Of a stretch of 64,000 nucleotides of DNA, positions 9,062-58,169 are shown in pieces. The translations under genes and the position numbers were made by a program. The stretch is from Callorhinchus milii. Its lineage: Eukaryota. The stretch spans positions 11,596,001-11,660,000 of the forward strand of contig NW_024704742.1 of NCBI RefSeq assembly GCF_018977255.1, read 5' to 3'. Below the pieces are notes generated by a model that was not told where the DNA came from, did no database searches, and worked only from the letters and a program-made list of their open reading frames with translations. Position 1 is the first letter of the stretch, and every line of letters begins with the position of its first letter.

Positions 9062-11449
9062 GTAACTTTTTTCACGGGTTTGTTTTACGATGTGCTTCCA
9101 CCATTAAAATCCCCTCTATGATCATGTTTCACCCCATGCTCCGCATCTTCCTGAAGCTTATTGACTGGATAAATTAACTGGCTTAATTTATTGCTGTATC
9201 ACTTAGCTCATGGAGTTAGTCATAAGGTGTTTGTTTTCCATTCCTCCAGCCAGACCATTCCCTGCATGCTGGTGCTCATGGTGTTGACAGGGCACTGTAA
9301 CATGAAATATTGTAAGCAGTTTAAAAATAATTTGAGCTATTCACAAATGGCCCATCTGCCATTGCTTTAAACTGTATTGCTGAAGTGGTGTGGTATTACT
9401 ACAGCCTGCCTAGCGACTCTTTCTTGAGTGAATGTTTCTGGATGCGAGTAAATCTAAAGTATTTACAATGCTGACTTTCCAATCATTCTTTTGCATGATC
9501 ATTTGTTCCAGTTAACTTGCTGCTTTGAAACACGTTAATTGAACTGGATGTCTAGTCCCAAGTATTGTTTCAGCATTGGTGGGCAACGCTTAAGGTGTGC
9601 TCATTAGTACAGTCATTCCTATGCATCTTGGTCTTGCTGGACGTGTTTGTTAAACTCCATTATTGGGACTAGTGATAACTATAAAGGAGATTATATAGGA
9701 AAGAGATCCATTAGCAGAGTAGAAAGCCCAGCCACCTATATGTCATGGTGTTCCTTCAGGTGAGATAAGGTTTGCATGCTATGAGGTGGTCAAAAGTGAC
9801 TGCTCAGTTCAAATGGAGGTACATGGTTCAAACCTTTCACCTGCTATTTGCAGATATGTACCAATTGTTTTGAAATGGATTCTCAGGTTATTAGCAGATT
9901 GATATTGGCTGCTAATGAGATTTCCCCTTTACAATTAGGTGCACATCATCAAAGGTGTAATGTGTTACACTGACTGGAATTGCTTCCCACTTGTGTCGAT
10001 TCCTCTGAGCTGACCAGTCCTACGATGTGCAGACAAGCTTTGCTTTAGCTCACCTATGCTATCATTATGTTGTGTAACCATTTTAGAAAACGGCACTTAA
10101 TAAGCAACCAGCTGAACTCTTCATTGGACAAGGGGAGGAAATCCTTTCGATGTTCAACTTTCTATTCATTAAATCCAAAAGGTTAAACTAATGAAGAGTA
10201 TCTAGTCAAATATTGTTATCCAGAGACAGTATTTCGATTTAGTCAGCAATTTGAATTGAAATTGAAATATTTTGTTATTCTATTAATAATAATAGTGTGT
10301 ATATATTCTGAAGCCCATCAATTTCTGTCATTTCAAAATTGCTCTTGTTTTAATCAGCCGTATTTCAAATCTCGTACACAGATTGTAAACTCGTAAGCGA
10401 TTCTCCTGGTTATTTATTGAGGCAGGTAATAAAGCTTTAGCTAATTGTGTAAGAGGTTGTAAATAAGTTGCTGTGACTGCCATTTTCTTGACAAAGGAGA
10501 CTGAACAGAAATCTTTTTAATGCCAAATGAAAGGCAAACAGATGAAGATGTTGTTTCCCTTGTTCTGCCGCTGAATTGGCTGTTTGTCAAACAGTTCCAT
10601 GGTCTGTGACAAACAACTTTCTGAACTTCCTAATTAACTTTGCCTTTTTGACTGTGGAAGGGCTACGTGGCTTGACGCCCTTGTTAGGCTGGTTGGAGTG
10701 AATTGGCAAACCATGCTTGAGACCTGCCTGTTTGAATCACTACCTGTTTGTCCAGTACTTTACAGTTTGGAAACAAACTGGAGAGAACATTTTCTGGGTG
10801 TTCGTCTGCAGTGAGAGGGTGAATTGACTGATTTCAGCCATGTTTTGAGTTTCCTTTGCCTGTCCTAGAATGAGCCTTTCTTATCCTAGAATAAGTTTTC
10901 ATAAAATGTCCTTATTGGCCAACCACTGAATGACTAAAAGAGACTGGTTTAGTCGTCATTGAATGCCATTGATATTCTGATAGGCAAACCTTGAATGGCA
11001 CATCTTTGAGAAATGTTTTTTTCTTTATCAGAATTGTTCCTTTGCAAGCTACAGATCTCAGCCCTTCACCCGGCACTTTGTTGTTTTCTCTTCCAAGCCC
11101 TTTCAAGAGGTGGTATGTGACTGGCATGTTCCCAGTCCTCCACCAGTCCTAATTTTTGCATGCTTATGAAGACAAAAACGCTTTCAGACATCTCAAAGAA
11201 GTGATAAGGCGCTATATCAAATGGAAGGATTATTATTATATATTTTTATAAATGCATGGTCACCATTCATGTTTTTACCCAGATCCAAATTGTATGTCGA
11301 ACCTTATGAGCTTTTTAAAACTAAAAGTAATACCTCCAAGGTTGAGAAGTTTTTTTTTTAAAATGACTTTCTACTACACCATTTTTTAAATGACTTTTCT
11401 CAAAATGCTCACCTGTTCTGATATCTATCAATATTAGAAACTGTCCAGT

Positions 11450-37199: not shown

Positions 37200-38110
37200 G
37201 TAAGTACTGCTAATTAACACAGCACCTCCAAGGGTATGAAATAGGACTTTTGCTAGACCTTTCCTGTACATTTTTAATTTATGGACATTCATTTTAAAAA
37301 TAAATGTTCTTTCCTGACCCACTTAATCGTTGCAAGCAATTAGGGCTTCACTGTCTCAAAAAAAACAGTGAAGGTGATTTTGACAACAACATTTCACCAA
37401 AGCATTGAAGTAACTTATCACGATGTGTAAAATGGATCAATTTTTCTGGTGCCACAGATCCATCAAAGAATTGCTCAATCGTCTCATTTAAAATAACAGA
37501 GGATATTTGCATAGCCTCCTTCTCTGGTTCTTGACGAGGATATCATTGTCTGATTCAGGGCATGAGTGCATTTTTTTTGCATATAATTATGTAATTGATA
37601 ATTATTTAGATCAAATACTTTTCACAGTCGGGCGACTGCAGTAAAAATTAATTTTGATGAAACGCTGAACCCTGCATTTGATTCGAGGAAGTGAGGCTGA
37701 TTTGGGTGGTGGATGTTGGAATAGCAGTGAATTGTGAAGTGGTGGAATGTGCAGGTTCCCCCCATGCAGTTTGTCCTCTCAAGATCAGTTCCAGATAGAC
37801 GGCAGGGAAGAAACATGAAAGGTTATGCACTTCATCAGGAAAGGGACAAAGCAGAGAGTCACCTCAAGCTGTGCAATGATGATAACGGAAAATAATTGGA
37901 GAGAGTTATTCTGGCAGAGGCTGTAGGCCCCAACTTTCTGTTTGGAAGTGATATGTGACAGACAGACAAGACAGATGGGTGTAGAGGAGAAAGGGCAAAC
38001 CAAGAGATGCATGTGAAGGAAGGAGGGGAACAGAAAAAGAACCTAAAAGGAGCAGAAGGGAGGTATTAAGCTTTTCATGCTAAAGTAACTTTTTGTTTTC
38101 AATTTTGCAG

Positions 38111-38202
38111 TTGAATGTAATATTTCTTGGGATAGCTCTTTACAAAATGTTCCATCATACAACTGTACTGAAGCCAGAATCCAGCTGTTTGGATAATATC
38201 AA
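38111..38202 (+). CDS. ADGRL3: TM5-ICL3 exon
   Basis: CAG ending 38110, GTAAGT at 38203, 92 nt, phase 0-2. LNVIFLGIALYKMFHHTTVLKPESSCLDNI. Confidence 0.96.
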
Positions 38203-39067
38203 GTAAGTCTCTTTCCATTGTGAGGGTCTTTGAGTGAGCTGTGTTTTGACGTTATGACGTAAATTGCATGTAGAGGTAAATATTTCACGGACTTACCCGT
38301 CTGCTTTGCATTATAATAATAATAATAATAATAATAATCCTTGCATTTGATATAGCGCTTTTCACGTCAGGAGGACGTCCCAAAGCGCTTCACAGAACAC
38401 ACTGTAAAGTGAATTGACTGTATATTTGTGGGCGAACGCGGCAGCCAATTGCGCACAGCAATGTCCCACAATTACTTGATGAATTGAATTGCCTTGTGCT
38501 TACAATATAGTTTATTAGCTGGAATGTTTCCCAGATGCAGCTTATCACTAGTGGGACCATCATATCATATAACAATATCATATACCCTTCTGAGAGTGGA
38601 CAACCAAGTCTTGAGTTGAACAGCTCATGTCCGTTTCCTTCACCGGTGTTTGCAAAATGCCCCCAGTTATAACAAATGCCCCATTACTTACCTCTGTAAT
38701 GAGTATTTAGAATTAGGTAGAAATGACATTATAAATATGACTGCACTGCTTGAGTATCCACTGCTTTGGATCTTCTGACATTATCAGTAGATTGGAACCA
38801 ATAAGATGCCTGAATGTTAATGCTGTACTGGCCCTGAGGTGAATTTTCTAAGCTGTCCTCTTAAGCACTGTTTTTTGCTTAATTAAAAGACGTAGACATG
38901 ATTTCTCAATATTATAAATAGTACAATTTATATTTCTTACACATTTCCCCCCCCCCCAAAAGGTTTGAGTGTTGGATCTTGGCTCCGCTATCTTTGCCGC
39001 ACTCCTCTTTCACTTGCAATTGCCTTATCCATGGATTACGATTACACTATCCGGAGTATGGTGGTAC

Positions 39068-39144
39068 ACACTGGTCACCTATTAAGGATACGTAACACTG
39101 GTCACCTATTAAGGATAGGTAACACTGGCCACCTATTAAGAATA
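39068..39144. repeat. 27-bp tandem repeat, about 2.8 copies
   Basis: ACACTGGTCACCTATTAAGGATA(C/G)GTA starting at 39068, 39095 and 39122. Confidence 0.92.
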
Positions 39145-39981
39145 AGGATCTCTTGCTTCTTCAAACAAAGTATTCTGCATCTTGTTAGGTAACCATGCTG
39201 TTGTCTATTGTTTATACATAGCTGTAGAAACATTTTACAAGAAATATTTCAAACAACATTAACCTACTTTGAGTGGTATACTTATGTGTGGGTGTGTATT
39301 TATTTGTGTGTGTATATTCATGTATGGGTATTGTATCTGCCTGGTATGTGTATTCGTGTGTGTGTGTGTGTCAGAGTCAGGTTCAGACTTCGCCACTGTC
39401 GAGGGCTCCAGGATGTTACCACATATGAAGGACTCTATCTAAATGCAAGTTGTTGTTGTGCGTGTTCATTTGTCTGTGTATTTGTGTATGTGTATATCCA
39501 TATGTATGTGTGTGTGCAATGCATGCACCTTTATGTATATATTTTGAAACTGGGGAGTCTTTTGATATTGTCTTTCACTACTGTCTTGAATTGCTACAAA
39601 TCATTGCCTGGTCCAATTTTAAACCCATCAGAGTGTGACTGAAAGACTGCACGCAGGAAAATAAAAGTAGTCAACTTGATTCTTTGTCCATTTGCTAAGC
39701 CTTTGAATTTGTCATTACAAATCTTTGAACCTTTTATTCTGCAAGCAGTCTTAACTGGTTCTTTTATAAATAAATGTAAAAAAGCCTCCTTAGTCCCATT
39801 AAATGACAATGTAGTAGGGCTCTGTGTTTCGTTTCAGAGATGTTTTTACACTGGCAGTCTAGTATACTATTTAAATCCATATTTTCACCCAGATTACAAT
39901 GTGATATGTGAATGCTGTAGAGGTGCCCCTTTATAACACAGTAATGGGGGGTAGGCATAAGATCCGAACCCACTTTATAGT

Positions 39982-40563
39982 GGAGTCCTGTAGATCAGTG
40001 GTTCGAGCACTCGTCTTGCAAACCTAGGTTTGATTCCCGGCAAGGCGAACATTGGCCAAGTTTCCTTACTCCACACGCCACACAGTAAGTAGGAACCCAG
40101 TGGTTAGTCGATTGACGGGGCCCTTTTCTGAGGGTAATAATTCCTTCAAAAAAAAATTGTCACCCAATTCACGACTGTTTGTGGGACACTGCTATGTGCA
40201 ATTGGCTGCTGCGTTTCACTCACAAATATATACAGTCAATGCACGATACAGTATATTCTGTGAAGTGCTTTGAGATTTCTTGAAGACGTGATAAGGCAAC
40301 AACAACAACAACAACAAGATTCCATTTATAAAGCGCCTTTCACGTCAGGAGGACGTCCCAAGGCGCTGCACAGTTGGGTCATGACCCGAGCAGGGGGGAA
40401 ATGGTCAGGGGGAGGGGAGGGAAGGGAGGGAGCGAGGAGGGGGGAAATGGTCAGGGTGAGGGGAGGGAAGGGAGGGAGCGAGGAGGGGGAAGAGAGTCGA
40501 GAGGGGAGCTGAAGGCTCGGTCAAAGAGAAAGGCACTATATCAAATGCAAGGATTATTATTAT
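39982..40563 (+). mobile_element. tRNA-Ala SINE interrupted by an L2 insertion
   Basis: Head GGAGTCCTGTAGATCAGTGG at 39982; the tail resumes at 40530 as AAGGCACTATATCAAATGCAAGGATTATT. Confidence 0.85.
40297..40531 (-). mobile_element. Young 5'-truncated L2 (family A)
   Basis: Reverse complement differs from 41-280 at only a handful of positions; AAGGCA duplicated at 40293-40298 and 40530-40535. Confidence 0.9.
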
Positions 40564-41071
40564 AATGCGGAGTAATCACTGATCAGGGCCTGTGACATAC
40601 CAATCACATGACCAGTGAAATTACTGCGTGCGCTCAGAAAGGCAGCTGCTTCCCACACCACAATATTGTCTAATTTCCCGGGTCATCAAGTCACTGCCAA
40701 CATTGGTTTCTGCTTATTGTACATGTTAATTGTGCAAGAACCCACAAAGCAGTGACTCGCTGATCCAGAAGTCATCTGCTTTATAGTGCACAGAGAGTAT
40801 ATTCTAACAGGGAATCTACCGCATTTCATTCATCTCAATCTGTTCAACTCAGATTTATATCAGTGTCATAATCCAATTTGCTCAAATAATCTTTCAATTG
40901 CTGGTACTCTTGTGCATAGATGTATAATAACAATAATCCTTACATTTGATGTTGCACCTTTCATATTAGAAGGACGTCCCAAAGCGCTTCACAGGGTGTA
41001 CTGTAAAGTGCAGTGAGACTGTGCGTTTATGGGCGAATAGCCATCCGTGTCTGCAGAACATTGAGGCTGTT

Positions 41072-41378
41072 CTGCCCTAGAGGGGGTGCAGCGTAGATTC
41101 ACTAGGTTAGTTCCTGGGATGAGGGGGCTGACCTATGAGGATAGGCTGAATAAACTAGGGCTGTATTCTCTAGAGTACAGAAGAATTAGGGGAGATCCTA
41201 TTGAAACATATAAGATTCTTAAAGGACTGGATAAAGTCGACGCTGAGGGTCTGTTTCCCCTGGTAGGAGAATCTATAACCAGGGGTCACAGTCTTAAAAT
41301 TGAGACTGCCCCTCGGGGCAGGCTCGAGGGGCCGAATGGCCTACTCCTGCTCCTAATTCTTATGTTCTTATGTTCTTT
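41072..41378 (+). mobile_element. CR1 LINE 3' end with internal deletion
   Basis: QRRFTRLVPGMRGLTYEDRLNKLGLYSLEYRRIRGD...TRGHSLKI joins almost directly to the GGGCCGAATGGCCT stem and (TTCTTATG)n tail. Confidence 0.9.
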
Positions 41379-44300
41379 CAAATACCATGTTCTCCCACTT
41401 CCCAGTTTAAGATTATCATTATTTTACCAAAACACATTTCAGGACCATTTCAGTTGGATATGTTTATACAAGAAAGAGACCTGCTGTCCTGGAGGCTTTT
41501 GCCTTTGTCCTGCTCTCTGCAGCTCAGAAGCAGACTGAACCCAGTTGAAATTGAGTTGTATTTAGGATCACAGTTCAGTTTCAGACCATTCACATGATTT
41601 CAGGTCGAATTAGTTCAGTCATTGAAGACTTCTAAATCATGACTTATTCTTTTCACGAGGCAAAACATTCCCATTGATCTAAATATGCAGAGGCCACTGG
41701 CTCTCGGCGAATTGCGGATTAGTAATCCAATCTCTTTTCAGATAATTTTATGAATCACAAGGCCAAGCCTCATGTGCTGCGAGTCCATCATCTAAACCCA
41801 CCGATTGGATTGTTGTCTTTCTATTAAAGGCACATTCAATGCTTTTCTGCAGGCAGCGTATGTACAGTGATGGGCTTTTTGTTTCCTCTAATTTTCCCCA
41901 TTGTCCTAAAGATGTTTGGCTCCTTATCTCTTCCATTGGGAGTACAGTGGAGAGCATTCAAAGAATATTCAAGCACCTGAGGCAAACCCAATTTTATTCT
42001 CATCCAACATCCACATATTGGAATCTCAAGCAAGGTGTCTATGGACTTAGATCAGCAGTAGCTTATCTAATTCCATCCTCACCCAACTCCATTATCCCAC
42101 CCTACATGTGCACACTAACAAGGGGTGCTGAGGTCAATGGCAGTGCACTTACGGCCGCTGTGGTTGAGAACAGCAAACTCAGCACAATCTGTACAGTGAC
42201 CAAGATTAATTGAAGTTGAGTCAGATCTAATAGAAATTTGTATTTTGTTATCACTGTCTGAAATACGTTGCCCATGACTGCTTGTTTATTGTTTGGTTTA
42301 ATTACTTTCGACTTCTCAAAGTGTTTTTTTTTAAAAATCTAATTTTTGAGGCATTATGTCTAACGAATGCTTGAGTATCCATGCATATCCTGCTGTTATT
42401 GTCCTGTGAAATTAAATTAATGTTTTGTTCTTCTGAGAATATAATTAAACAGCAAGCACTTGTGTGGTGCATAATAGCCTATGATACGTGACATGGGTTT
42501 CCCTACTGAACAGTAGCACACGCTCCATACATGTGTACTGAGGATGGCGGAGTTTGTGCAGAAAACGCTTAGCATGAAATTATTCAATCAGCATCTACAG
42601 AGCTTTTCTGCGATTCAAGGGAGTTAGTGCTAGGAAATAGAACTCTCTTATTTTCTACATGATTATTATTATTACATGCAGTGCATCAAGGACTCTCAGA
42701 TGAGGTGGAAAATTTCGATACAGAAAAAAAATCCTCTTTTTTTTGTACCAGTTACCTCAATTCCCACTGCACTTTATCCAAATTCTTGTGAAGCACCTCG
42801 AGACATCTCCACAAAGGTATAAGATGCAATATCAAACGCAAGGTTAATTTATTTTATGAATCCTCCTTTCTACATCACCGTGCCACTTCCCCACTCTCCA
42901 CAGTAAGCATCCTGAGGCTTATCCGAGTGAGATTGCTAAATAAGTGGGGCATAGACTTAACGCACAACCAAAACAGTTTGAACTTGTGTAAGTAAAACTG
43001 TTTTCAGAACTGAAGAGCTTTTAGATGTCTCAACAACATGCTGAGGCACTATATTAAATGCAAGGATTATTGTATTATCCTAATTTTGGGAAGAATTCCT
43101 TCACCCAGAGGGTTGTAAAGACTTGGAATTCTCTGCCCCAGAAAGTTGTAGAGTTGGAAAGAATCAATAGGAATGTTTTAAAGAGAGATAGACTTAGTGG
43201 TAACAATAATAATCCTTACATTTGGTATAGCGCCTTATCATGTCTTCGAGGAGTCTCAAGTGCTTCACAGAGTACATTGTAAAGTGAATTGACTGTATAT
43301 TTTGTAGACGCAGGAAGGTAGAGGTGAGCGAAGGAGCCAGATATTGGGATTAAAAGTTCTTTCTATAGTTCTAAAATGTGATAGACCGATGGTCATAGAT
43401 CATGGGTGAAAATATTCTTTGGTGCGTGGTGGAGTGACTAAAATTCGATTAAAGAGCCAGTCCTCTTTCAGACAGGTGAGCCATTGGCTTGACCGACAGG
43501 TCCAATAGCCAATCGGAAATGAAAACAACAAGTTGCATTTATATAGTGCCCCTCACACAGGGTAGTATCCCAGAGCACTTTACAGTGGTGGAGCACAATG
43601 CCGAGCCGGGGGAGGGGGAGGTGACCGTAAGCACGGTTGAAGGTCGGAGCCAGACAACCCTACAAGCAGTCTTTTGGATCTTGAGCGGGCAAGGGTCGCT
43701 TCTGCATTGGGAGAGGAGCCAGAGGCAGTCCGTACCGGGGGTGACATGGATTGGGGCTGCTCGGGGTAATGACTGTAGCCCTCCTCAGAGCTTTCAGCTC
43801 CCAGCTCCCCTTAAAGAGATGAAGCTGTCGATGGAGGGGAGGGCAGCAGCCTGAAGGCCAAATGTGTTTTCTAAGCTACACACGATCCTCCAGCAATAAT
43901 AATAATAATCCTTACATTTGTTATAGCATCTTATCATGTCTTCGAGACGTCTCAAAGCACTTCACAGAATATACTGTAAAGTGAATTAACTGTATATTTT
44001 GGGGCAAAATGTACAACAACAACTTGCATTTATATAGCACTCTTTAAGTGGGGTAGCATCCCATTCCAGTAAGGTCTGACCAGGATATTATACATCTGTA
44101 ACGTATTGAGTTTTGTAGGTTATTAAACCCTTCAAGTTATGCAGCAAAAAATTTTTAAAAATACTTCAGAACAAGAGTATTCTAAAATAAATGGTTTTAT
44201 GTTTAAACTTCATTTCAACCACAAGGACTCTTTTGGGACAAGTAATAAACTTGTTAGGGAAATTGAATTTCTAGTTGTTTAAAATGCAAGCTTCAATAAA

Positions 44301-44819
44301 TTACAAGGAATTCAAAAGGAATAGTGCCTCTTAAATTGCCCAGGAGCAGATTTATATTACCCAAATTTAATTTAGCAGCCAGAAAAGTAATTCTTTGTAG
44401 GTACGTTTCTTTCTCTAGCCAATGTTCTCCCATCCCTCTTGTGTCCTGCAGATAGTTTTTTTCTGCTAGGCTACAGTCCCATTTATGTCATTCATGCTTT
44501 GGTGCCTCGGTTTAGAGATTATTATTCATATAATCATTGTAATGAGATGTGCTGCAAAGTTTGCAAAGAGTGTTCTTCAGTTGATTTAGTCTCAAATCCC
44601 TGACTGTCCAGCGCGTTGGGACATCCTCCCGGCATGAAAGGCGCTATACAAATGTAATTTGTATTGTATTTATCTGACAACAAATCTGACAACCTTAACC
44701 ATATCAATTTTCTCCCCTCCTTTTATGTTTACTGTCTTTATTTCACTATCTCTTTCTTAATTGTCCTAAACTCTTTAAAGTGATACTACAAACCTTAGTA
44801 GTCCACATAGCCAGGTCAT

Positions 44820-45050
44820 TTGACCGTTGATAAGGGTTATCTTGGCCCAGTGCTGTTTTTGCTTGCTGTCCACACACACACACAGGCATAGACACCAGCA
44901 CCCAACACACACAGCTTTGTCCCACAGTCTCTGAATAATGATCAGGAGTAGGAATCATTCCCCTCCCAAGCCAAGGGTGTGACAATTGACCAATTCTAGC
45001 TCCCCGATGACTATCCTGGCTGAATGAAGCAAATTCTGCACAGACTTTGA
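44820..45050 (-). mobile_element. Ancient degraded SINE-like repeat (possibly LF-SINE type)
   Basis: Weak mutual similarity with about 11800-11990, 41970-42190, 6660-6760 and 56670-56930 (GCTGAG..CAGC.AACTCAGCACAGAC, GAGGCCAATT motifs). Family name from memory. Confidence 0.4.
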
Positions 45051-47202
45051 TTGACTTGTAAAATCTTTGAGACGTTGGAGGAACCTGTAATTCTGTGTTA
45101 AGAATCATACAGAAAAATAAATAACTGATTGTTTTGTTGATGTGCACAAAATCTTTTCGAATTTAGGATGTAATATGTACCAGCGAGGGTCGTGTTGTCT
45201 GATGGTCAAGGTGACTTTATGAGTCTGTTAGAATGTTTCATTTATTAATATTAAAATAAATCACCGCTCTAAGAAACAATCATGCAACAAAAATGTATCA
45301 CAGTCAAATGCATGAAAAGTGTGAAATATCATCAACAAATGTTAAACCTTTCTTTAGCTGAAGCTGAAAGGTTTACAGGCACTTTCTAGTAAAGCACTTT
45401 CCAAACATCTGTGTCTAGAACATGCCTTATTAACTTAAAACAATAATAAGTAATAATAATAATCGTTGTATTTGATATGGAGCCTTATCACGTCTTCGAG
45501 ACATCTCAAAGCGCTTCACAGAATATACTTTAAACTGGATTGATTGTATATTTTGTGGGAGAAACGTGGCAGCCAATTGCACACAGCAGTGTCCCGCAAG
45601 TGGATTGAGTGACTAAATTATTTTTATTTATTTGAAAGGAATTATCACCCCTGGAAAAGTAATCCACACTATTAAGTATAGAGGGAGAAAACCGTTTGAG
45701 AATAGACCTGCAGGTATACACATATATGTGTGCAAGTCACCTTGTGTGCAAGCAGGGGCATGTGTTCTTGGGTACCCACCCAACTACTTGTGCTTGCTTC
45801 TTTCTGAGATTCCTGTGCTTTCATCATCCTATGTTACTGGTATCTCAGCAATGCGTATCCCAGTTACTGCATTTGGCATTTGTCTGCTACCAAAAGAAAT
45901 GATAATTGTTCGTCCTTATTTGTTCTGGATCTCATTCAGAGCTTATACAGATCTGATCAAATATGGAGTCTTCTGGCAGTCTATACGCATTTTGATTCAT
46001 TACTGTAACCAGAAGCGGAGCCTATTAAATGAGGTTGCCTGGGTGGGGTGGTGGCAGAAGTTCTAAACAATTCTTTGATTAATAATTGGTCGAGGTCTGT
46101 AATCTATTTGAGAGGGAAGAGAACAGTCTGCTTTCTGTATTCACCATTGAAAATAGCCTTGCAAAATGTTTCAGGAATACAGGCTGTGCTTTTCTGTGCA
46201 CATTATAAACAGGCAGCATTCCACCAGCACTTTTTGAAACACACCCAGTTTACTTTGCTCTTTCTTTTTTCTTCAAACGAAAGACGTGTGTGTGTTCAAA
46301 TATTGGTGCAGACACTTGCTGTTTTCTCAGTCATTATTTCTGCCGCTGAAAACTGGCGCCAGTCCTGTGAGAAACCAATGTAAGGGGATTGTTTTGATGT
46401 CAAATTGCACTTTTCTGTGGAAGTTTTAGACCATCTGCCTGTTTTCATGAATATTTTCTCTCATTTTCACTCACTGTGAGCTCAGTGTTTTGTTTCCTTC
46501 AAGTGAGAATAAGGTTAGGCAGAGCAGAGTAATACTGAACAAATCCATTTAAGTTATAGACCAGAGACCATTTTTTCAAAAGTGGCTAGCACTAGCAGTA
46601 AGTATAGAAACCTAATCCTTGAAAAGAAAGGAGATTCTTATTTATTGTGAGAAAATACCCTTTAAAATAGTTTTTTCGTTAAATCCTGTTGAGAAGCACT
46701 TTACCAGCTTGTGAACATCAGGAGGACAAACCTGTCAGTAAATTCAGGTTTTCTAATTGAAAACAGTGATGAGACCTATTGTCCAGCCATCATCAAGGTT
46801 AATGACTAGATCATCATCATTCATTCTTCCATTTAATACAGCGCCTTATCATGTCTTCAAGAAGTCTCCAAACACTTCACAGAATATTTCTACAAAGTGA
46901 ATTCACTGTATATTTTGTGTACATAGTTATATACAATATTTTTTTCAATTTTTTTGACAGGTTTATTATCCTGGGTAGTTTACATTTCAGGAGCTCTTAA
47001 ACAAACCAAATGGCTAGATTGATAGTCTTCATACAATATTAACTATAATAATAATAATCCTTGCATTTAATATGAGCGTTATCACATTGTTGGGATATCT
47101 CAAAGCGCTTCACAAAATATACTGTAAAGTGGAGTGACTGTGTACTTTGTGGCTGAAACAAATAGATGAGAGGAAGAGTTCATTTCAGAAATAATGCTTA
47201 CA

Positions 47203-49402
47203 ACAACACAACTTGGATTTATAAAGTGCCCTCCACGCCAGACAGTGTCTCAGAGCGCTTTACAGTAACAGATCCCGGTGTCGAGCCAGGGGGAGGGGGA
47301 GGAAGGTGACCAAAGGCGCAGTCTTTGAAAAGAAAGGTCTTCAGCAGAGACCTGAAAATAGGAAGAGAGGGACCGAGGCAAAGGGAGTGAGGAAGGGAAT
47401 TCCGGAACCTCGGGGCGTAGTGGCTGAAGGCACGGCCGCCGAGGTGGAGCAGAGTACTCAGGGGATGAGGAGGCCAGATCCGGAGGAACAAAGGCAACGG
47501 GTACTGTTTTAAGGAGAGAGAAGGTCAGAGAGGTAGGGGGTTGCACAGGAGGGAAGGGAATTGAATACAAGAGTGAGGATCTTGAATTCGATCCTCTCTG
47601 GGATAGACAGCCAATGCAGTCTGGCAAGGACTGGGGTGATTGAGGAGTGAAGTTTGGTGCGGATGAGAATGCGGGTGGCAGAGTTTTCAGTGATCTGGAT
47701 TTTATGGATGGTAGTGGAGGGGAGGCCGGCGAGGAGGGCATTAGAATAGTCCAGCTGAGAGGTGACAAAGGCATGGACTAGGGTGTCAGCAGCTTTTGGG
47801 GAGAGGTATTGGTGGACCGGGCGATGCGTCGGAGGTGGAAGAAAGCGGTGCTGCTGAGGGACCGGATGTGGGGAAGAAAGGATAATTGGGGGTCGAACCT
47901 GACGCTTAGGTTGCGTACGGGTTCGGAGAGTTTTAGGGGGAGATCGGGTAGGTGGAGGAGGTGAGAGCCATGAGATTTTAAGACGTTAACGAGAGCCAAA
48001 TAGTATGGCTTCCGTCTTGTCAATGTTCAGCTGAAGGAAATTTGCGCTCATCCAGCCCCTGAGATTTGACAGGCAGACTGACAGAACATCAGGGAACTGG
48101 GGGGGGTCACAAAGAGGTGGAAAAATAGAGTTGGGTGTCGTCTGCATACATGTGGAAATGTACTCCATGTCTGCGGATGACACACTCAAGAGGGAGCATG
48201 TAGATCAGCAAGAGGAGGGGGCCAAGGGTGGATCCTTGGGGTACCCCGCAGGTGACCGGGTGAGAGCGGGAGGAGAAGCCGTTTGTGCAGATGTACTGCT
48301 GGTGGGTTGTGAAGTAGGGCTCGAACCAGGCGAGTGCGGTCCCACTGAGGTGGATGATGGAGGAAAGGCGGTGGAGGAGGATGGCATGATCGACTGTGTC
48401 AAAAGCCGCAGAGAGGTCCAGGAGCACAAGGAGGCAGAGGGAGCCCTGGTCACAGATAGAGAGGATGTCGTTTGTGACTTTCACAAGCGCAGTCTGTACT
48501 GTGGGCAGAGCGGAAACCGGACTGGAGGGGTTCGAAGAGGGAGTGGGAGGAGAGGTATGCACGGAGTTGTTTGGCAACAACACATTCTAGGATTTTGAGA
48601 GGAAGGGCAGGTTAGAAATGGGGTGGTAGTGGCTGGGGTTTGAGGGATATAGGGAAGGTTTCTTGAGGAGGGGAGTGATGACAGCAGTTTTGAGGGGAGC
48701 AGGGACTGATCCGGAGGAGAGGGACTGGCTGATGATGTCAGCCAGTAGCGGGCAGAGGAGGGGGAGCTGGATGACCAGCAAGTTGGTGGGGTCGAGGGGG
48801 AGGGGGTCGAGGCAGCTGGTGGTGGGTTTCATGGAGGTGATGGTGGGTGAGTGGGAGGAGGGAAAGATGGGGAGGAAGAAATGTAGGATGGGGTGGTGGT
48901 AGGAGCAGATGATGGGGAGAATGAGGGGCACAGAGAGGGCGTGGTGGTGGGTGACAAGGTGCTGGTGGATGAGGCTGCCTGGCGGATGTTGTGAATTTTA
49001 GATGAAAAGAAGTCCATGACCTCTTCGCACTTCGCATTTGATATGAAGATTGAGGAGGCCTGAGAGGGGGCACGGAGGAGGTAGTGGGTGGTGGGAAAAA
49101 AGGATTTTAGGGTTGTGTTTAGCCTCCAAGATGATGTTGGAGTAGAAGGCCGTTTTTGCGCATGTCAAGGAATGGTGGTAGCTGTGGAGATGCTTGAGCC
49201 ATAATTGGCAGTGGACTGTCAGGCCAGTTTTTTGACATCTGCGCTTGAGCAGCCGGGTTTGGGTTTTTAGGCGGCGGAGATGGTTGTTGAACCAGGGGGA
49301 TCGGGTGGGTTCGGAGATGGTCCTGGATTTCAGTGGGACGAGGGAGTTGAAGGTGGTGGAGAGGTGATCGTGCAGCATCTGGACGGCTGCTTCAGGATCT
49401 CC
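47203..49402 (-). mobile_element. 2.2-kb 5'-truncated, frameshifted L2 LINE
   Basis: HPISNLPFLSK, LLDLSAAFDTVDH, GVPQGSTLGPLL, MYADDTQLY and LQLNIDKTE lie in shifting frames; TSD GCTTACA at 47196-47202 and 49403-49409. Confidence 0.95.
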
Positions 49403-50470
49403 GCTTACATTCTTAGGATTTCAAAGTGTGCAGATTGTAGGAGGTAAGGACATCCACAGCCTTTTGGAGGCCAAAGCACACAAAGTCACAACCTCCCAAT
49501 GCTATTTTAATTTTTATCACCTGCGTGCCTGACACACACAAGGAAACCCATCGTCATGCTTAAGAGTATCCAAACTAGAGAGAATTCCACATATGTATGC
49601 CCTTTGATCATGGAAATTTCCTTGTGGAATGGATGTGCTCTCTCTCTCCTTGGAGGGAGGGACGCACACTCTGCTAACTGAATTCTGGAAAATATCAGGC
49701 ACAGATTAGCAAGATACAAAGGCTTGGGATTCCGAAGTGAGCACTACGCTAAACCTGCACAGCTTGCCAAACTCATAACTTGCACCCTAGCGAACTTCCT
49801 GCAACTTGTACAGCAAGGACCACTTTATCGGTTATGGCTTTGGTTTGCAGTGTTAACAGTTTACCTTTAGTAGGTCATTTGACATCTGCCGAGAGCATAT
49901 ATGAGCCGCTCACTCGGGGGTCAACAGGTACTCAGAATTCTCTGCAGATATCCTGGTGAGTAGCACAGCTCAGCATGACATGTGTGAGAGCATTGCCACT
50001 AAACACCTGTTCACAGCTCAGACACACATCCATTGAGTGACTGTTCCACCAGTCATTGGTACGAAGCGTGAACAGTAGCTGCTTACCTCTCTGCATTCCA
50101 GTCAAGGTGGATACCAAGCCGTGGATATGTGAGCGAGCTCAGTTCTCCAGATAATGTCACCCCAAGCCTCAGAGTTTATCAACTATTCAATGAACATCTG
50201 CCTTTAGTGTGGTGGGACCTTTACAGGTGACATGCCTTGTGCTGAAGGTCCAAATCCAATCTGTGCACTAGGCTAACTCAGCTGGTTAATCCGTTTTCTC
50301 ATGTGAGGGGCTTTGACAATGCAGTGGCGACAGGTCAGTGTAGACCAGAGCCCGCCCTCCTTGCAACCTGTTCCCCTACTTACCATATACCTACCTCACC
50401 GATAATTTTGGAAGCCTCTCTGCTACACACTCAGGAGTTTAGAACCATAAAGGAGAACTGTTTGGACATC

Positions 50471-50868
50471 ATAATAATAATAATAATAAAAATAATGATC
50501 CTTGCATTTGATATAGCACCTTTTATCACATCTTTGAGACGTCTCAAAGCGCTCATGGAATATACTGTAAAGTGAATCAACTGGATATTTTGTGGCCGAA
50601 ACGCGGCAGCGAATTGTGCACAGCAGCATCCCATAAACAGTCGTGAATTGAGTGACCAATTTTTTATTATTATTATTATTTTTTGAAGGATTGATTACCC
50701 CCAGAAAATCGATCCGCCAATCTGCTAACAACCACTTGCAACTTACTGTGAGGTAAACAGAGGTGTGTGGAGTAAGGAAACTTGTCCAGTGTTTCACCCT
50801 GCCGGGAATCAAACCTAGGTCCTCTTCCTTGCGAGGCGACTGCTCTCACCATTGATCTACAGGACTCC
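50471..50868 (-). mobile_element. Full-length tRNA-Ala SINE
   Basis: Reverse complement runs from the GGAGTCCTGTAG head to the (TTA)n tail. Confidence 0.87.
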
Positions 50869-52889
50869 ACACCAGAATGCCCTTCACCCTTACCCAGCAC
50901 GGTCCCGCAGGACAGTGTCCAAATGAAAATTGGCGTCCATCATGACCCCCAGATACCGATAAGAAACATTAAATTTGGATGCCACTTTCAGCAACTAATT
51001 CCTGAGATATGTAATTGACATGTAGTGCTCTACATTGTTTGGAGATTGCCTATTGATTCTCAACTTCTATTTAGTACCTCTCCATCTATGTCAGTCCTCA
51101 TACTCTGACGTTTGCCTGTCGAAAGTTGTATACTGGGATTCGGTTGTATCTTTGCACCATTTCCCAATTCCGTTTGAATGTTACTAAGCTGTGCTCAGTA
51201 TTGGCCAGTGGTTAAACTATTTCTATTCCCTGAACACTGTCATAGTCACTGACGAAAACTAAATCTATGGGATTCCTGACATCCTGAGTCAGGAAGCAGT
51301 TATCAACCACAACGATGAGCTCAGGCAAGTTCCCACTTTCTCTCTTCAACATTTCCGTTTTAATTTGGGTTGCTTGAAGCTCCTCATCCAAAACACCTTT
51401 TTTTTGTTTTGCTTTGTTCATGTTTCTAACATTACAATAACATTATCAGTTGTTCTTATTTTAGTCTGAAGCCACCCCCATTTTTAAGCACATCTAACTG
51501 GAGACTTTTTTTACCTTGGCTCATCCCAAAATTCTGGCTCATGTATCATACCTTCTCATTTGCCCTTTACAAACCTTGTGTATCTTCCTATCTTTCCTGA
51601 AAGGCCTGTATCCTAGCCCATTAGACCATAATGAGAATCACCTCATTAGCACTGTTTCAATGCAGTTTAAAACATATCCTAACAAAGTATTTCCTTTTGG
51701 TATTTTCAAGAATGTCGGTGTTGTAATTTATGCTGGAAGATGGTGGTGAAATGCTTGTTTGAAACTAAATATTTCAATGGATTCTGGTGACGTCTTGAAA
51801 AAGTTGAACTGACTAAATTGCTCCTTTTTTAATCAATATCGATACAGTAGCAAATATTGCTGGCTGGAAACATTACTCCAAGTGTCATTACAATGCAGTT
51901 GAAATAATTTGTTAGTCTTGATCAAGAAGTGCAAAGCAGAAAAAAAAAGGTTAGAAAGTGTGTGTGTGTCTGTTTCTCCTTCTCCTTCTATTGCATATTG
52001 TTCAGTTGCCATTGGAGGTGTGGGTTTTGTATCACACCTGCCAGCTGTTTTTTCTTCTTGCCACTTGTGACTGGAAATGGTGGGAGGGACATCAGTTTCC
52101 GAATTTATTTTGTACAAGTCTCAGCAGTACTTCAACCAATCTTCAATATCTTAGAGAGATAAGCCAAACTCCAGTTCTGTAATTTGCTCACCTGTCTCCC
52201 CATTGCATAATGACTGTCACACATGAAATGGGTACTACGTTGCACAGTGTACTTGTGTACATTTCACCATCGATACTTGGAACATCTGCCCTTGAAGAAA
52301 AAAGTGGAGTGGCAGATTGCACACTCTGAGGTCTCTGAATTATGTCTGCAACGGTTGCATTCCCACAGTTTTAAGTGTTGCCATCAACAAGGACTTTTGC
52401 TGGTCTGTTTCTATTTTTAAATGTTAATAACTTCAGTTTACTTTGTGAGAAGTTTTCAATTTCCGTACATTTGCCCGCATAGAGATTTATTTGTTACAAA
52501 TTTCAATCCAAGCCTTGCCAGTGTTGAGTGCTACAAAACTTTCTATCCCACGAGATTAAGAACACTGATAAAATTTGTAGTGTGTCTGAAAGTAAAAGCT
52601 GGTATGTTGGCTTGTTTTATTTTAAATTGATGTTAAATTAGATTAACTTCCCTGCTGAAAAATTTGGGTTTACAGTAATGGACAAATTAAATCCCAGTGA
52701 GGATACGATCTAAAGATCAACTACCAAAATCTGTTGCATCTCACCTGCATTGGCATATTTTAATATTTTGTCTTTATTTTCCTTCATTAGTTTGTTCTTT
52801 ACTTCATTCTAATTTCCTTTGCCTGCTTTCATGTAGCACTTCATTCGGAATGTGAGCTCTTCTGTTTCTTTTTTCTTTGCCTGTTTCAG

Positions 52890-52931
52890 CTATCGATTTT
52901 ATGCTGGATGCATTAATATGGAATGGAGAGG
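52890..52931 (+). CDS. ADGRL3: Putative 42-nt ICL3 cassette exon, (N)YRFYAGCINMEWR(G)
   Basis: Strong polypyrimidine tract and CAG ending 52889, GTAAGA at 52932. Phase 2-2 fits the host intron, no stop. Pattern resembles the ADGRL2 ICL3 insert. Confidence 0.65.
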
Positions 52932-53479
52932 GTAAGAGCCAGTATCCTCTTGAAGTGGGTTGGAATGACAATCACCATTTAAATAAACTCATTGATTTTG
53001 GATTACTTACTGTATTGGGTATTAAGAAGCTCGCAGTCAAGCAATTTGAGGGAGATTAATGATAGTTCAATTAACAAAAGCTTTGTGGATCTGATTAACA
53101 AGTATCTTGGAAGTTTACCAATGGAGGTGCTGAAATCTTTAATGAACTTGTCCGTTTGCTCAAGACTGTGCTTGGAGATAGTTTTTATCTAAAGCGCGTT
53201 GGGCACAATTAAGAAATATTATTTTGAAATGTTTTTCTGAAATTGAGTATTCTAGAAAGATGAGATCAGATAGGTCAAAGAGCCTTCTCTTATGAATCTT
53301 GAGAGCCTAGGTCATGGAGAGTGATAGGGGCAAACTGCCTCCTCCACACTTTCACTATAACTTTCACTATAACGGTAACGATTTATGTCACTTGCCTTTA
53401 GGTTGTACGTCCTCAACTAAATTCCTTGTGGTGTTGATTCATAAACCCCTGGAGGATAAATGAAAATATGAACAAATGG

Positions 53480-54090
53480 TGTAGTGGTCAAAGTGTATGA
53501 GAGACTGAAAGCTAGTTTGCAGGTGTAGAAAGCAATCAAAAACACTAATGGGATCCTGTATTTTACAGGAAGCGGTCTGTAATATAAATGCAAACAGTTC
53601 CTGCTCCAGCTAAACAGAGAAGTGCTCAGGCCTCATTTGGAATATTGTGTTCTGTTTTGGGGCCCATATTTTTAGGAAGAATATATTCGTCTTGGAAGGT
53701 TTCCAATGACAATTTACTGGATTATTAACAAGGAATGAGCGAGTTTAGCTATGAGGCTAGGTAAGATTGTGTTATGTTATCCAGAGCTGAAAAGGTTAAG
53801 TAGTTATCTGACTGAGGTGGTTAAAATAATGAAGGGAATTAACAGGCTAGATTGGGTCTCTTCCATGGGTAGAGAACATTTCAAAACAAAGGAGCGCAAT
53901 CATAAAATCAGAGCTATCCCGGGCAGAAACAAGACCAAAAAATGTTTCTTCACAGAAAGCGGGGTGTGAATGCGTAGTGCGTTGCCCAAGAAGGCCATCA
54001 ATGTCAAATTAATGGGGAAGTTTAATCAGGAGATAGACGGATATTTGAGAGGTTGGGGATATAGAGAAAGGGCGGAGAAATGAGATTTAA
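53480..54090 (+). mobile_element. Old degraded CR1 LINE 3' region
   Basis: Remnants RPHLEYCVLFWGPY, KIMKGINRLD and KCFFTE. Confidence 0.75.
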
Positions 54091-54819
54091 ACATCTGCCA
54101 TTACCTAATAAAAGTTACAGAATCCAGCTGAATTGCAGAGTCACAGAGACACTGATGGAATGTTTGAACCTACCTTGACGCTGATTTGCTCCTCATATAC
54201 ATTTATCTCAGGATATGAGTTTCAGTGATTACTGGGACTATCATAGACTGAGAGTGTCACAATTGCCACTTTGTTAAACTAAGTGACCTTCCTTCACCAA
54301 GCAACATAATGCTGTCTCACTGCCTTGCTCTGTTGATCATTTGGGACCAACAAACGATTGTTGAAATTTATAGAAGTAAAAATAACGCAATATCATATTT
54401 AGATTATGGTTGGCCATTTTGTAAATGCATTGCCAAAAATATCACTCTCCTGATATGCTTTCAAAATGGATGAATCATTCAGTTTCTTGAAGGCAAGAGG
54501 TATAAGGGTCACAGTATTTTTGAAGATAACTGTTTGTTTTAATGATGTCATTGCAACTTGGCTTCAGACTGTGTAGCTAGTATCCTGTCTGCTTTGTCAA
54601 TTGCCTTCTTTCTGTGGCAAAAACTGGCTTCTGTAGCAATCTGCCCCCAATTTACCTCTGTCTGATGAGATGTTCACTTTTTCTCTCTCCCACTCCCCTC
54701 TCCCAAGCCCAGGACTGTCAGAATTTATTTGTCTGCATTCCTTCCTGGTTGATTTAATGCACAAACATATGCATCCAAAGTACAGAAATCATTCGACAAA
54801 TGGCTTACCTCTAAGTATT

Positions 54820-55030
54820 TAACATTTGAAGGTCTTGATATTCCTTCCTAAAGTGTGGTGCCCAGAATTGGACACAATATTCCAGCTGAGGCCTCACCAT
54901 TGACTTATAAAGGTTTAGCAGAACTTCCTTGCTTTTGTACTCTATGCTCTATTTGTAAAGTCAAGGATCCCATATGCTTCTTTAACATCTCTATCAACCT
55001 GTCCTGTCACCTTCAAGATCTGTGTTTGTG
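54820..55030 (-). mobile_element. CR1 ORF2 fragment
   Basis: Reverse strand [24 protein letters not shown]. Confidence 0.8.
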
Positions 55031-55390
55031 AGTAGCTAGGATCTCTGAGGTTTTGTAACTGTTTTTGCTGGTCCCTTGCCTGTCTGTGTTGGTCAATGAC
55101 TATACCACTGTACACTGTATATCAGCAATTTCTGTTTTGTGTTCCCAGCACACAAAATAAATTTAAAAGTAAATATTTAAATGGATGTCCTGAACAATTA
55201 CCATTTGCTGACAGTTATAGTTCCAGCTCTATTGTTATTTAAGATGCATCAAAACAATCATGGGGTTAATACATCATTGGTTAGAGAATTCTGAGAAGGA
55301 GGGTACTCTCACTTATGACTGACTATTAGTCCAGTCTGAATAGTCAGCATTCATCCAATTGATACTTCTGGGTCTTGTGTGATATTGTGT

Positions 55391-55520
55391 GGAGTCCTGT
55401 AGCTCAGTGGTTAGAGCACTCACCTTGCAAGCGAGAGACCTGAGTTCTATTCCCGGCACAGCGAAATGTTGGGCAAGTTTCCTTGTCTCTGTTTACCTAG
55501 CAGTATGTAGGAACCCGGTT
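55391..55520 (+). mobile_element. tRNA-Ala SINE head
   Basis: GGAGTCCTGTAGCTCAGTGGTTAGAGCACTCACCTTGCAAGCGAGAGACCTGAGTTC. Confidence 0.85.
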
Positions 55521-57034
55521 CCTTCAAAAAATTCCTTCNAAAAAAATTCTCGATGCATTGCTTAGAAAAAAATCATAATGAGCACATTTCTTAAACATAG
55601 TTTGTGGTTTTAGTCAAGTTAGTTTTAGAAATTCAGTAATTACACATTTCTTATTTAGAAACCTGTTCAGAAAATACCAGAATACCACAACAGGCTGAGC
55701 ATGGATCGAGCTGTTATGCCTGCATTGCCTGGCATCAATGAGCCTGTTCAACTGTCGTCTGTGAAAAAGCATGACTCAGACAGACAGACAGACAGGTTTG
55801 TTGTGTGGGAATCCAATGATTAGGGGCAGTTTCTTGAAATATCTTAAAACAGCTCAGTCTTTATAATGCTCTCTTACGATCTGAGCCATTGTCCAGTGTG
55901 TGAAAGTGCAGCAGCAGATGGTGCCTTACTTACCCTGAGCAAGAACAATAACAACAAATTACATTTGCAATTTGTGCAAATTGGTGCCTTTCATGTCAGG
56001 GAGACGTACCAAAGCGCTTTACTGTGAAGTGGAGGGACTATGTGTTTGTAGGCAAATGCAGCAGCCTATTTGTGCACAGCAGTGTCCCACAAACATCCAC
56101 GAAACGAACGACCAATTTTATTTTCTGGTCTCTTTATTTTTTCCTTTCCTGCCTCGTCNTTTTTTGACTCACATGTTTGCTTTATTGGTATCTTACCTTT
56201 GTCTTGCATCAGTGCCTCACAAAAAAACACTCATCTCAAAAACTGGCATTGTCACAGTTTGACCTGAATTCAAAGAACCGTACTTGGTTGATGATTTCAT
56301 TACCTTGAAAGCTGGTCTAAGGAAACGATTCATCTCTCAGAAAAGTCATTGCAGTAGGTATTACTGCATTTCTTGAATTTATTTCTTTTCAAACAGCAAC
56401 ATTTGCAAATCCAAATAATTTAAACACAATTTCTGCATTCCATGTATGGTTGGTAAAGAAATAATAAGATTGTAAAGATTGGTTTATGGATTTGGGGATG
56501 CACAATACAAAGTGCTAATGTGGTGCACAACATTTAGCACAAACCTGAGAAGCAAAGAGCAGCCTATTGACTATTAAATATAAATTTAAAAAGCTGCTTC
56601 AATGTTTGTTAAAGGAAATGCCCGATGTGAAACTGAGCAGTTGAGATTTGAACATTCCCTCTTTTAGTCCCGTTTATGCTGAGCTACCTCATCTGACCCA
56701 GCTACTTGCTCTTTCAAGGCACAAATCAAAATATACTGCTTTGATTGCGCTTTTGGTTATCTATCCCCTCCCCATCCCACTCAGCTCCCAACCATAGATC
56801 GGGTGCCCATATGGGCTCAGGTATGAAGGACAACCATTTGGGTGAGGTACTAGGGGTTTGTAGATACTGAAGGCTATCCAGGGCCCTTGGAGTTGTATCC
56901 GAGCGTGTGTCTGTGTCTTGGCGAGTAAGGGTTCAAACGTTTCTAACTTGGGTTGAAAGAAAATGATTACCCAAACTGTTTGTTTAAAAAAAATGCATTA
57001 CTATCTTAATTGGCTCTTTTTTTATTCTTTACAG

Positions 57035-57203
57035 GTCATGGGTCATAGGGGCGATAGCACTCCTTTGCCTCCTTGGACTAACTTGGGCTTTTGGACTTAT
57101 GTTCATTAACGACAGCACAGTTATCATGGCATATCTCTTCACCATTTTCAACTCGCTGCAGGGAATGTTCATATTCATTTTCCACTGTGTCCTCCAAAAG
57201 AAG
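57035..57203 (+). CDS. ADGRL3: TM6-TM7 exon
   Basis: CAG ending 57034, GTTAGT at 57204, 169 nt, phase 2-0. [23 protein letters not shown]...[19 protein letters not shown]. Confidence 0.97.
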
Positions 57204-58169
57204 GTTAGTCTTGTCTATCAAAGGAATATATATATATATATCTATGAATATATTGGACTGGGGGGAAAAGTAAAGGAAGTCGGGTAAATGTCCTTCCTCT
57301 TGATGGCTCTTGTTCAGTGTTATCACAATACTGCAGAAATCAACTGCTTCATTGCTCAATAAGGAGACAGAAAGGTCTAGTAAGAGTTTATTAATTCTTG
57401 TGCAGGCATTAACCTTTCCTCCTCTATAAATATCCTTAATTGTCTTTCCAGATTTGAGTATTTATGGTTTAAACTCTTAACCTTCTGAAGTCAGGAAATA
57501 GCAATTTCAGAGCGATCAGTTTTCTATTGCTAATTTCATTTGTGTGTATCAGCACAAAAGATGCACAAAATGAGGGGTTGGAACACTCTGCTTTGAATAA
57601 GTTGAACAAACGCCTGTTGAAGCTGTTCAGTGGAATTTCAAGTCATATGCAGTAAAACTGACAAATTTAGTAAAACTCACAGCTTTGAATTGTAGATACC
57701 TATTTTAAGCTGCAATATATAGCAACACAGCTCTATTTGGAAATCACTTCATATTGTTGTATGGACAGTGCAGGTGTCAAATGATTACTCCTCCATCAGC
57801 AGAAATTTTAAAACACAGCATCAAGTCTAAGCAACTGCTTCACCCGTGTCCTGATAAAGATGGAAATAGAAGAAGCATGCATTGCCTTACAATGACAAAA
57901 CACGTCTTCCCCAAACCTAAACCAGTCATATTTATAAGTGAACCCAATTTCAATGCTCTTAACATGGGGTGTGAGAACTGACCCTAGATCCACAAGGATT
58001 GCACCAACTCTGCCCAGGCTGCGTAGGATGCAAGGCTTACATTGAATGGAATTTCGATAAATTATGTGGATTCTGGTATAAGGGGCACAATCTCTAAGTT
58101 TGTAGATGATATGGAAATAGAGAGTATAGCTAAAAATAAAGAAGATTCTAGGCAACTTAAATGCTTATT

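Follow-up and report, generated by a model that had tools for sequence, protein, structure and literature searches.

The window analyzed here is a 64,000-nucleotide stretch of the Callorhinchus milii genome (contig NW_024704742.1, positions 11,596,001 to 11,660,000), and coordinates given below count from its first letter unless another sequence is named. It carries part of the gene for the latrophilin ADGRL3. The TM6 exon (57035-57203, forward strand), which encodes the end of the third intracellular loop (ICL3) and TM6, starts with G TCA TGG, and ends with ...CVLQKK, is 100% identical in a protein search to the C. milii ADGRL3 records P0046 and P0047 and 98% identical to shark and ray ADGRL3, whereas identity over the same stretch drops to 80%, 75%, and 69% in the three paralogues of this genome. 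The latrophilin-3-type gene of the original prediction is therefore ADGRL3. The preceding exon (38111-38202, forward strand) encodes the last part of TM5 together with the first residues of ICL3 (LNVIFLGIALYKMFHHTTVLKPESSCLDNI followed by AA; donor AA|gtaagt, phase 2) and was matched by tblastn to residues 977-1010 of P0047; thirteen further segments of the window also match P0047, and protein residues 512-1140 could be placed on the window. A 45-nt segment at 9020-9064 matches residues 573-587 of C. milii ADGRL3 (E 0.004) and may be the small GAIN-region exon for which alternative splicing occurs in mammals. Four single N letters are present in the window, at positions 20532, 23360, 55539, and 56159.

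The TM5 and TM6 exons are separated by a phase-2 intron that splits ICL3 (38203-57034, forward strand), which had been put at 18.8 kb, measures 18,832 nt, and consists largely of repeats. Within this intron lies a 42-nt segment of phase 2-2 (52890-52931, forward strand), referred to here as cassette A of ADGRL3. Its acceptor region (52858-52889, forward strand) contains a polypyrimidine tract with 18 pyrimidines among the 20 positions from -22 to -3, a TGC at 52878-52880, and a terminal cag, and the acceptor reads tcttctgtttcttttttctttgcctgtttcag|C at position 52890. With 90% pyrimidines at -22 to -3, it is the richest of the acceptors that were placed exactly in the window. Past position 52931, the sequence reads GG|gtaaga, so that the donor GTAAGA occupies 52932-52937 (forward strand) in the junction AGG|GTAAGA. 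Scripted joining of the window exons without the segment yields ...CLDNI-K-SWVIG, and joining with the segment yields the stop-free product ...CLDNI-NYRFYAGCINMEWRG-SWVIG, with the junction peptide ...CLDNINYRFYAGCINMEWRGSWVIG; NYRFYAGCINMEWRG thereby takes the place of the single K, so that ICL3 becomes 14 residues longer immediately ahead of TM6. Re-reading of the sequence thus bore out the length, phase, open frame, and GTAAGA donor first quoted for the segment, and the anticipated inclusion product, DNI-insert-SWVIG, was reproduced in frame. By every sequence criterion, 52890-52931 is a cassette exon.

Because an intron of this size offers many opportunities for accidental exons, the splice signals were weighed against their background. 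Across the intron there are 1,315 AG sites; AG..GT candidates that are open, in phase 2-2, and between 12 and 120 nt long number 1,221, and 44 of these have a length of 42 nt. The combination of at least 80% pyrimidines at -22 to -3 with a GTRAG donor is found in only 3 candidates, cassette A among them. Taken by themselves, the splice signals and the open frame do not exceed chance in this intron, and these counts favor the reading of the segment as a pseudo-exon, that is, an AG...GT stretch that is accidentally open in phase and resembles an ADGRL2 insert by coincidence. The homology scan argues against it. All frames on both strands of the intron (37,588 positions) were scored with three probes taken from the core of the ADGRL3 cassette in catshark, teleosts, and Scleropages; position 52891 scored 55, 52, and 51 with these, every other position scored at most 24, and the background had a mean of about -17 and a standard deviation of about 7.8. 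When the ADGRL2 cassette was used as the sole probe, the site ranked only 22nd of the 37,588 positions, a point in favor of coincidence, and the likeness to ADGRL2 is therefore convincing only jointly with position and phase. As the segment is also identical to a catshark insert at 10 of 15 residues, and as its place and phase coincide with those of annotated inserts, a chance pseudo-exon is extremely improbable. It is homology between the peptides, and not the splice signals, that is decisive in raising the segment above chance.

The homologous inserts are found in ADGRL3 of other fishes. In a protein search with the TM6 exon, a comparable insert was present at the corresponding site in two teleost ADGRL3 records among the 120 listed. 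A follow-up profile, built from ADGRL3 inserts and short flanks, listed 120 clusters, in 71 of which an A-type insert is present (70 from teleosts of 19 genera, together with isoform X11 of the catshark Scyliorhinus canicula); 47 of the remaining listed clusters have only a YEDNRPFIK-type insert, one is a longer mammalian variant, and one does not cover the site. The annotated insert of catshark X11 (P0188) consists of NYRFYDGSVNVEWQG followed by YEDNRPFIK. The peptide of the window, NYRFYAGCINMEWRG, shares 10 of 15 residues with the catshark insert and 8 of 15 with the form that is common in teleosts. Residues Y2, Y5, G7, E12, and W13 are common to the window, the catshark, and both aligned teleost cassettes, C8 is also common to the window and the teleosts, and a core of the form Y-R-[FY]-Y-x-G-x-x-x-x-E-W joins the window cassette to the catshark and teleost ADGRL3 inserts. 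These inserts (for example P0050, P0121-P0187, and catshark X11) belong to the same gene and occupy the same site between CLDNI and SWVIG, where 15 residues stand for K. At the level of peptide, site, and phase, this comparison demonstrates that the window cassette is orthologous to the annotated catshark and teleost ADGRL3 inserts. The view that the exon is ancestral rather than new is upheld by this orthology, and its supposed novelty to ADGRL3 has to be given up, as 71 of the 120 listed clusters already have it annotated. Two differences remain: the catshark and teleost inserts are annotated, whereas that of C. milii ADGRL3 is without annotation, and the former run on into a second cassette (YEDNRPFIK or YQDYEPEIK), none of which is found in the intron of the window, so that cassette A would act alone.

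A paralogous insert is encoded in the same genome. In the 991.5-Mb assembly searched, the window corresponds to G000:C1:11596001-11660000. A genome search with the two flanking exons retrieved homologous exon pairs on contigs C5 (2.3 kb apart) and C29 (7 kb apart), and the gene on C5 (G000:C5) is ADGRL2, being 100% identical to a C. milii ADGRL2 record. Its ICL3 intron contains a 45-nt cassette A (L016:1300-1344) that encodes NNYRVCDGYYNTDLPG, i.e. (N)NYRVCDGYYNTDLPG, behind a long pyrimidine tract, and a 27-nt cassette B (L016:1678-1704) that encodes YEDNKPYI (YEDNKPYIK with the junction). The nine-letter junction AGG|GTAAGA is identical at ADGRL2 cassette A and at the window cassette. Isoform X3 of C. 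milii ADGRL2 annotates both cassettes exactly as the DNA reads, and 5 of the 12 C. milii ADGRL2 records include cassettes (three A, one A and B, and one truncated A); a truncated NNYRVCDERIM stands at this place in the Ensembl-derived record P0385. The ICL3 site is covered in 106 ADGRL2 clusters: 68 are without an insert, A stands alone in 12 and is followed by B in 25, and a single cluster has only B. The exon is optional in transcripts (37 clusters with A), and the A peptide is identical in all 37 clusters bearing it, from chimaera to rodents.

The window cassette and ADGRL2 cassette A lie in homologous phase-2 introns, are symmetric in phase, and share the pattern N-Y-R...G...N...G with a similar E/D pair; they are identical at 6 of 15 positions (N, Y, R, G, N, G), and their score against each other was reached by 31 of 100,000 shuffles, and the score of the catshark cassette against ADGRL2 cassette A was reached by one of 100,000. 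In a multiple alignment, the A cassettes of ADGRL3 and ADGRL2 align together, followed by the B cassettes. The likeness to the ADGRL2 insert is modest but indicates real homology, as had been proposed from the six identities. The ADGRL2 insert cited in that proposal exists (in the same genome and in 37 of the 106 clusters) and the six identities were correctly named, but the actual peptide has one extra N and is encoded by 45 nt. ADGRL2 cassette A, to which the window cassette is paralogous, corresponds to exon 23 of mouse Adgrl2 (PMC13108381) and to the additional ICL3 exon present in variant 13 of human LPHN2 (PMC12236479). The two types differ in that ADGRL2 cassette A has 45 nt, one more N, and an invariant peptide, whereas the ADGRL3 cassette has 42 nt here and a variable peptide.

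Much of the surrounding intron is filled with repeats, and the segment might accordingly be an exonized or decayed repeat, belonging to the CR1-like sequence that had been suspected at about 52930-53290. At the sensitivity of the search used, window 52800-53243 matched only itself in the 991-Mb genome, and the 36 other genome matches all fell within query positions 441-501, which places the start of a multi-copy element at about 53244. Six ORFs around the cassette gave no Pfam match at E up to 1. An ORF at 53739-53969 resembles a LINE 3' tail by eye, and it has no Pfam match. Membership in a CR1-like element is thus contradicted by the single-copy state of 52800-53243 together with the Pfam result, and the teleost orthologues and the ADGRL2 paralogue of the cassette would be impossible for a lineage-specific repeat; although the neighboring multi-copy element and the LINE-like ORF gave the idea some initial appeal, a repeat origin can be regarded as negligible. 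Elsewhere in the intron, a (TAA)n run and interspersed repeats (38303-38345, 40289-40444, 43800-44460, 55357-55997, and other bins) are covered by contigs to a depth that ranges, in each of the four runs, from thousands to hundreds of thousands, and an AAT-rich element (..AATAATAATCCTTRCATTT..) is repeated at 40923, 43895, and 47044.

The second cassette of the fish inserts, cassette B, was sought in the ICL3 intron of the window with regular expressions, an exhaustive list of 27-nt AG..GT segments, and BLOSUM scans with four B peptides, and no B-type cassette (YEDNRPFI-like) was found; the searches returned only copies of AAT-rich repeats without splice sites. A B insert is recorded in ADGRL3 of skates, rays, catshark, teleosts, a lizard, and a mammal, and the missing B between 52932 and 57034 looks like a lineage-specific loss, judging from this distribution. 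The insert NYEDNRPFIK that had been cited for mammalian ADGRL3 is real, but it is not the counterpart of the window exon: it corresponds to a separate 27-nt cassette downstream, which stands in tandem with A in fish ADGRL3 and in ADGRL2. Cassette B resembles A in being an optional exon of the same gene and the same ICL3 intron, placed in the loop before TM6, and differs from it in its 27-nt length, its downstream position, and its unrelated sequence. Exon 24 (E24) of mouse Lphn3 is here equated with the NYEDNRPFIK exon; this is our own reading, as the available passages of the paper (PMC10830413) do not give the exon sequence. Because A and B are common to ADGRL3 and ADGRL2, the two tandem ICL3 cassettes predate the split between these genes.

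On these grounds, the segment at 52890-52931 is very probably a genuine, conserved alternative cassette exon of ADGRL3, the first of two tandem optional ICL3 exons, which adds 14 residues before TM6 and is proposed to alter the engagement of G proteins and arrestin. The anatomy, orthology, and paralogy of cassette A are established by the comparisons given above; its continued splicing in this species and its effect on signaling are what we infer from them. The exon was rightly called hidden: all 14 C. milii ADGRL3 records examined (4 RefSeq and 10 UniRef) are without any ICL3 insert and have the plain K. Among the 18 sequencing runs listed as containing the TM6 exon, none is recorded as RNA. 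In two RNA-like contig sets (X1 and X2), contigs match precisely 57035-57205 and extend past it on either side as if spliced, with 29 and 13 further letters upstream. In the region searched (38050-57260), where repeats fill the tables of joints and loose ends, X1 and X2 give no cover at the cassette, and two further sets (X5 and X6) give even, low cover across the intron that resembles DNA or pre-mRNA.

These records bear on a second reading, in which the segment is a relic of the ancestral cassette, one that has dropped out of ADGRL3 mRNA in holocephalans and looks intact only through the slow evolution of the lineage. The uniform lack of the insert in the 14 C. milii ADGRL3 records, while cassettes of ADGRL2 from the same species are annotated, speaks for such a relic, and so does the distribution in elasmobranchs, among which a single record of many carries cassette A. 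In six clusters of elasmobranch ADGRL3, cassette A is found in none of 26 records (11 have B only and 15 have neither), no elasmobranch record among the TM6-exon matches listed has it, and catshark X11 is the only annotated cassette A of a cartilaginous fish seen among the ADGRL3 records examined. The apparent loss of cassette B from the same intron also counts here, because it indicates that the loss of an ICL3 cassette does occur in ADGRL3. That same loss can be turned against the relic, for cassette B has become traceless and thereby illustrates the fate of an unused cassette, whereas cassette A has kept its frame, both splice sites, the residues common with teleosts (Y2, Y5, G7, C8, E12, and W13), and the most pyrimidine-rich acceptor of those placed in the window. 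A relic is unlikely, and a cassette that is still in use is the preferred reading.

How inclusion of the cassette might be regulated is a separate question, and an answer to it is compatible with a functional exon. The TGC close to the acceptor had been taken as a cue for a neural microexon of the SRRM3/4 type, whose inclusion would depend on the UGC beside the acceptor. The TGC at 52878-52880 lies at -12 from the AG in a UCUUCU...UGC arrangement, which fits the published bipartite UCU_CUC..UGC enhancer; the same work reports that, in 74-79% of the microexons dependent on SRRM3/4, a UGC is located downstream of the branch point and ahead of the AG (bioRxiv 10.1101/2024.09.17.613571). TGC also stands beside the 27-nt B cassettes of ADGRL2 (-10) and of the probable ADGRL1 described below (-11). 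The window exon further resembles SRRM3/4 neuronal microexons in its short length, its preserved frame, its deep conservation, its location in the gene of a synaptic adhesion receptor, and the pyrimidine tract and UGC ahead of the AG. However, a TGC within 18 nt upstream is found at 284 of the 1,315 AG sites of the intron (21.6%), so that its presence here is at chance level, and the 42-nt length exceeds the 3-27 nt that a published abstract gives for this class. Upstream of ADGRL2 cassette A, the final 60 intron bases are free of TGC, whereas GCATG occurs at +39 and also at -97 and -90; the missing TGC together with the GCATG at +39 points to other regulators for the A type. Dependence of cassette A on SRRM3/4 is therefore doubtful.

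As for function, splicing-in of cassette A would lengthen the third intracellular loop by 14 residues directly before TM6 with the frame kept, and by analogy the insertion could change the contact that G proteins and arrestin make with the cytoplasmic side of the receptor, depending on the cell type. The expectation of such a shift arises because the relatives of the cassette, ADGRL2 cassette A and Lphn3 E24, are reported to produce one; the functional data behind the analogy come from mammalian cassettes that are paralogous to, or different from, ADGRL3 cassette A, and those for the A type come from ADGRL2 only, as far as the available passages of the two papers extend (PMC12236479 and PMC13108381). 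According to these passages, the ICL3 insertion of human LPHN2v13 lowers tethered-agonist-dependent activation of G-alpha-13, and v13 is the sole LPHN2 variant without agonist-dependent binding of arrestin-3 (PMC12236479). Inclusion of mouse Adgrl2 exon 23, which encodes 15 ICL3 residues, is given as about 74% of transcripts in glutamatergic, 49% in GABAergic, and 7% in endothelial cells (PMC13108381, available passages). For E24 in ICL3 of mouse Lphn3, inclusion is reported to favor coupling to G-alpha-s and exclusion coupling to G-alpha-12/13 (PMC10830413, available passages), and variation of ICL3 in Lphn2 and Lphn3 is mentioned in the passages seen of a review (PMC6629964). No paper on cassette A of ADGRL3 or on the tandem A/B arrangement was found in the open-access literature.

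The other latrophilin-like genes of the genome extend the comparison. The paralogue on C29 contains a B-like cassette of 27 nt and phase 2-2 (L017:3732-3758, equivalent to G000:C29:4013081-4013107), which has good splice sites and yields K-YEDYKPFL-K; it reads tctgtag|A TAT GAG GAC TAC AAA CCA TTT CTC AA|gtaaga, with the TGC at -11. No cassette A was found in its ICL3 intron (L017). TM6 of this paralogue begins with SWALGAITLLFLLGLTW, and the gene is probably ADGRL1, by elimination and by its SWALGA motif. No named ADGRL1 was present among the representatives at 50% identity, and the Protein Data Bank returned chains of ADGRL2, L3, and L4 and none of L1. The available passages of one study state that mouse Lphn1 is not spliced at the ICL3 site (PMC10830413). 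A fourth latrophilin-like gene on C117 (L018:8094-8171 and 9686-9850) has a shorter ICL3 (..HSAPLTLENIK / SCALGVVALLCLLGITW), and neither an A nor a B cassette was found in its ICL3 intron of about 1.5 kb; the representatives P0406 and P0412 look like relatives of this gene.

In the chimaera genome, both cassettes are present in ADGRL2, A alone in ADGRL3, and a B-like cassette alone in the probable ADGRL1; the fourth gene has neither. Outside this genome, a mammalian ADGRL3 record (P0211, from MetaClust; 98% identical to a human 7TM construct) contains a 20-residue A-like insert, NNHRICDGILYKSTFNERLPF, before YEDNRPFIK, and a divergent A-like exon may persist, or may be predicted, in the mammalian ADGRL3 locus. 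Among the representatives at 50% identity, no A- or B-type motif was found beyond the vertebrate proteins already identified. Several distant latrophilin-like proteins (P0415, P0419, P0421, P0427, P0428, and P0430) have an ICL3 of 25-33 residues that ends in [DE][LMV]P before [AST]W[LI]KG; this ending is reminiscent of ..TDLPG|SW, with which ADGRL2 cassette A closes, although the proteins may come from related taxa and hence are not independent support.

It can be put forward tentatively, as an idea with nearly as much for it as against it, that ICL3 originated as a switch made of two cassettes, earlier than the genome duplications of vertebrates, with A of about 42-45 nt (NYR..DG...) and B of 27 nt (YED..P..K), and that the paralogues kept different parts. 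Under such differential retention, sharks and teleosts would have kept A and B in ADGRL3, and mammals would have kept B plus, at most, the divergent 20-residue A-like exon. If this is true, holocephalan ADGRL3 would set its G-protein bias by an ADGRL2-type cassette, and not by the E24-type cassette studied in mouse, and ADGRL1 of some vertebrates would have an unrecognized ICL3 splice site.

The window exon is an unannotated orthologue of an exon that is known from other fishes and whose paralogue is well studied, and identifying it reveals no new mechanism. What it does provide is a correction to the ADGRL3 gene model of a reference cartilaginous fish, and it bears on a current topic, since the splicing of latrophilin ICL3 is being pursued through the coupling shift of Lphn3 and the insertion of LPHN2, to judge from the available passages of those papers. 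It further shows that, in ADGRL3 outside tetrapods, the loop has one more cassette than the mouse work covers, and that this cassette is of the ADGRL2 type. A and B are shown to be old, separable modules that are combined differently among the paralogues, and the naturally occurring A-only, B-only, A-plus-B, and empty receptors would allow the effects of loop length and loop sequence on the choice of G protein to be compared.
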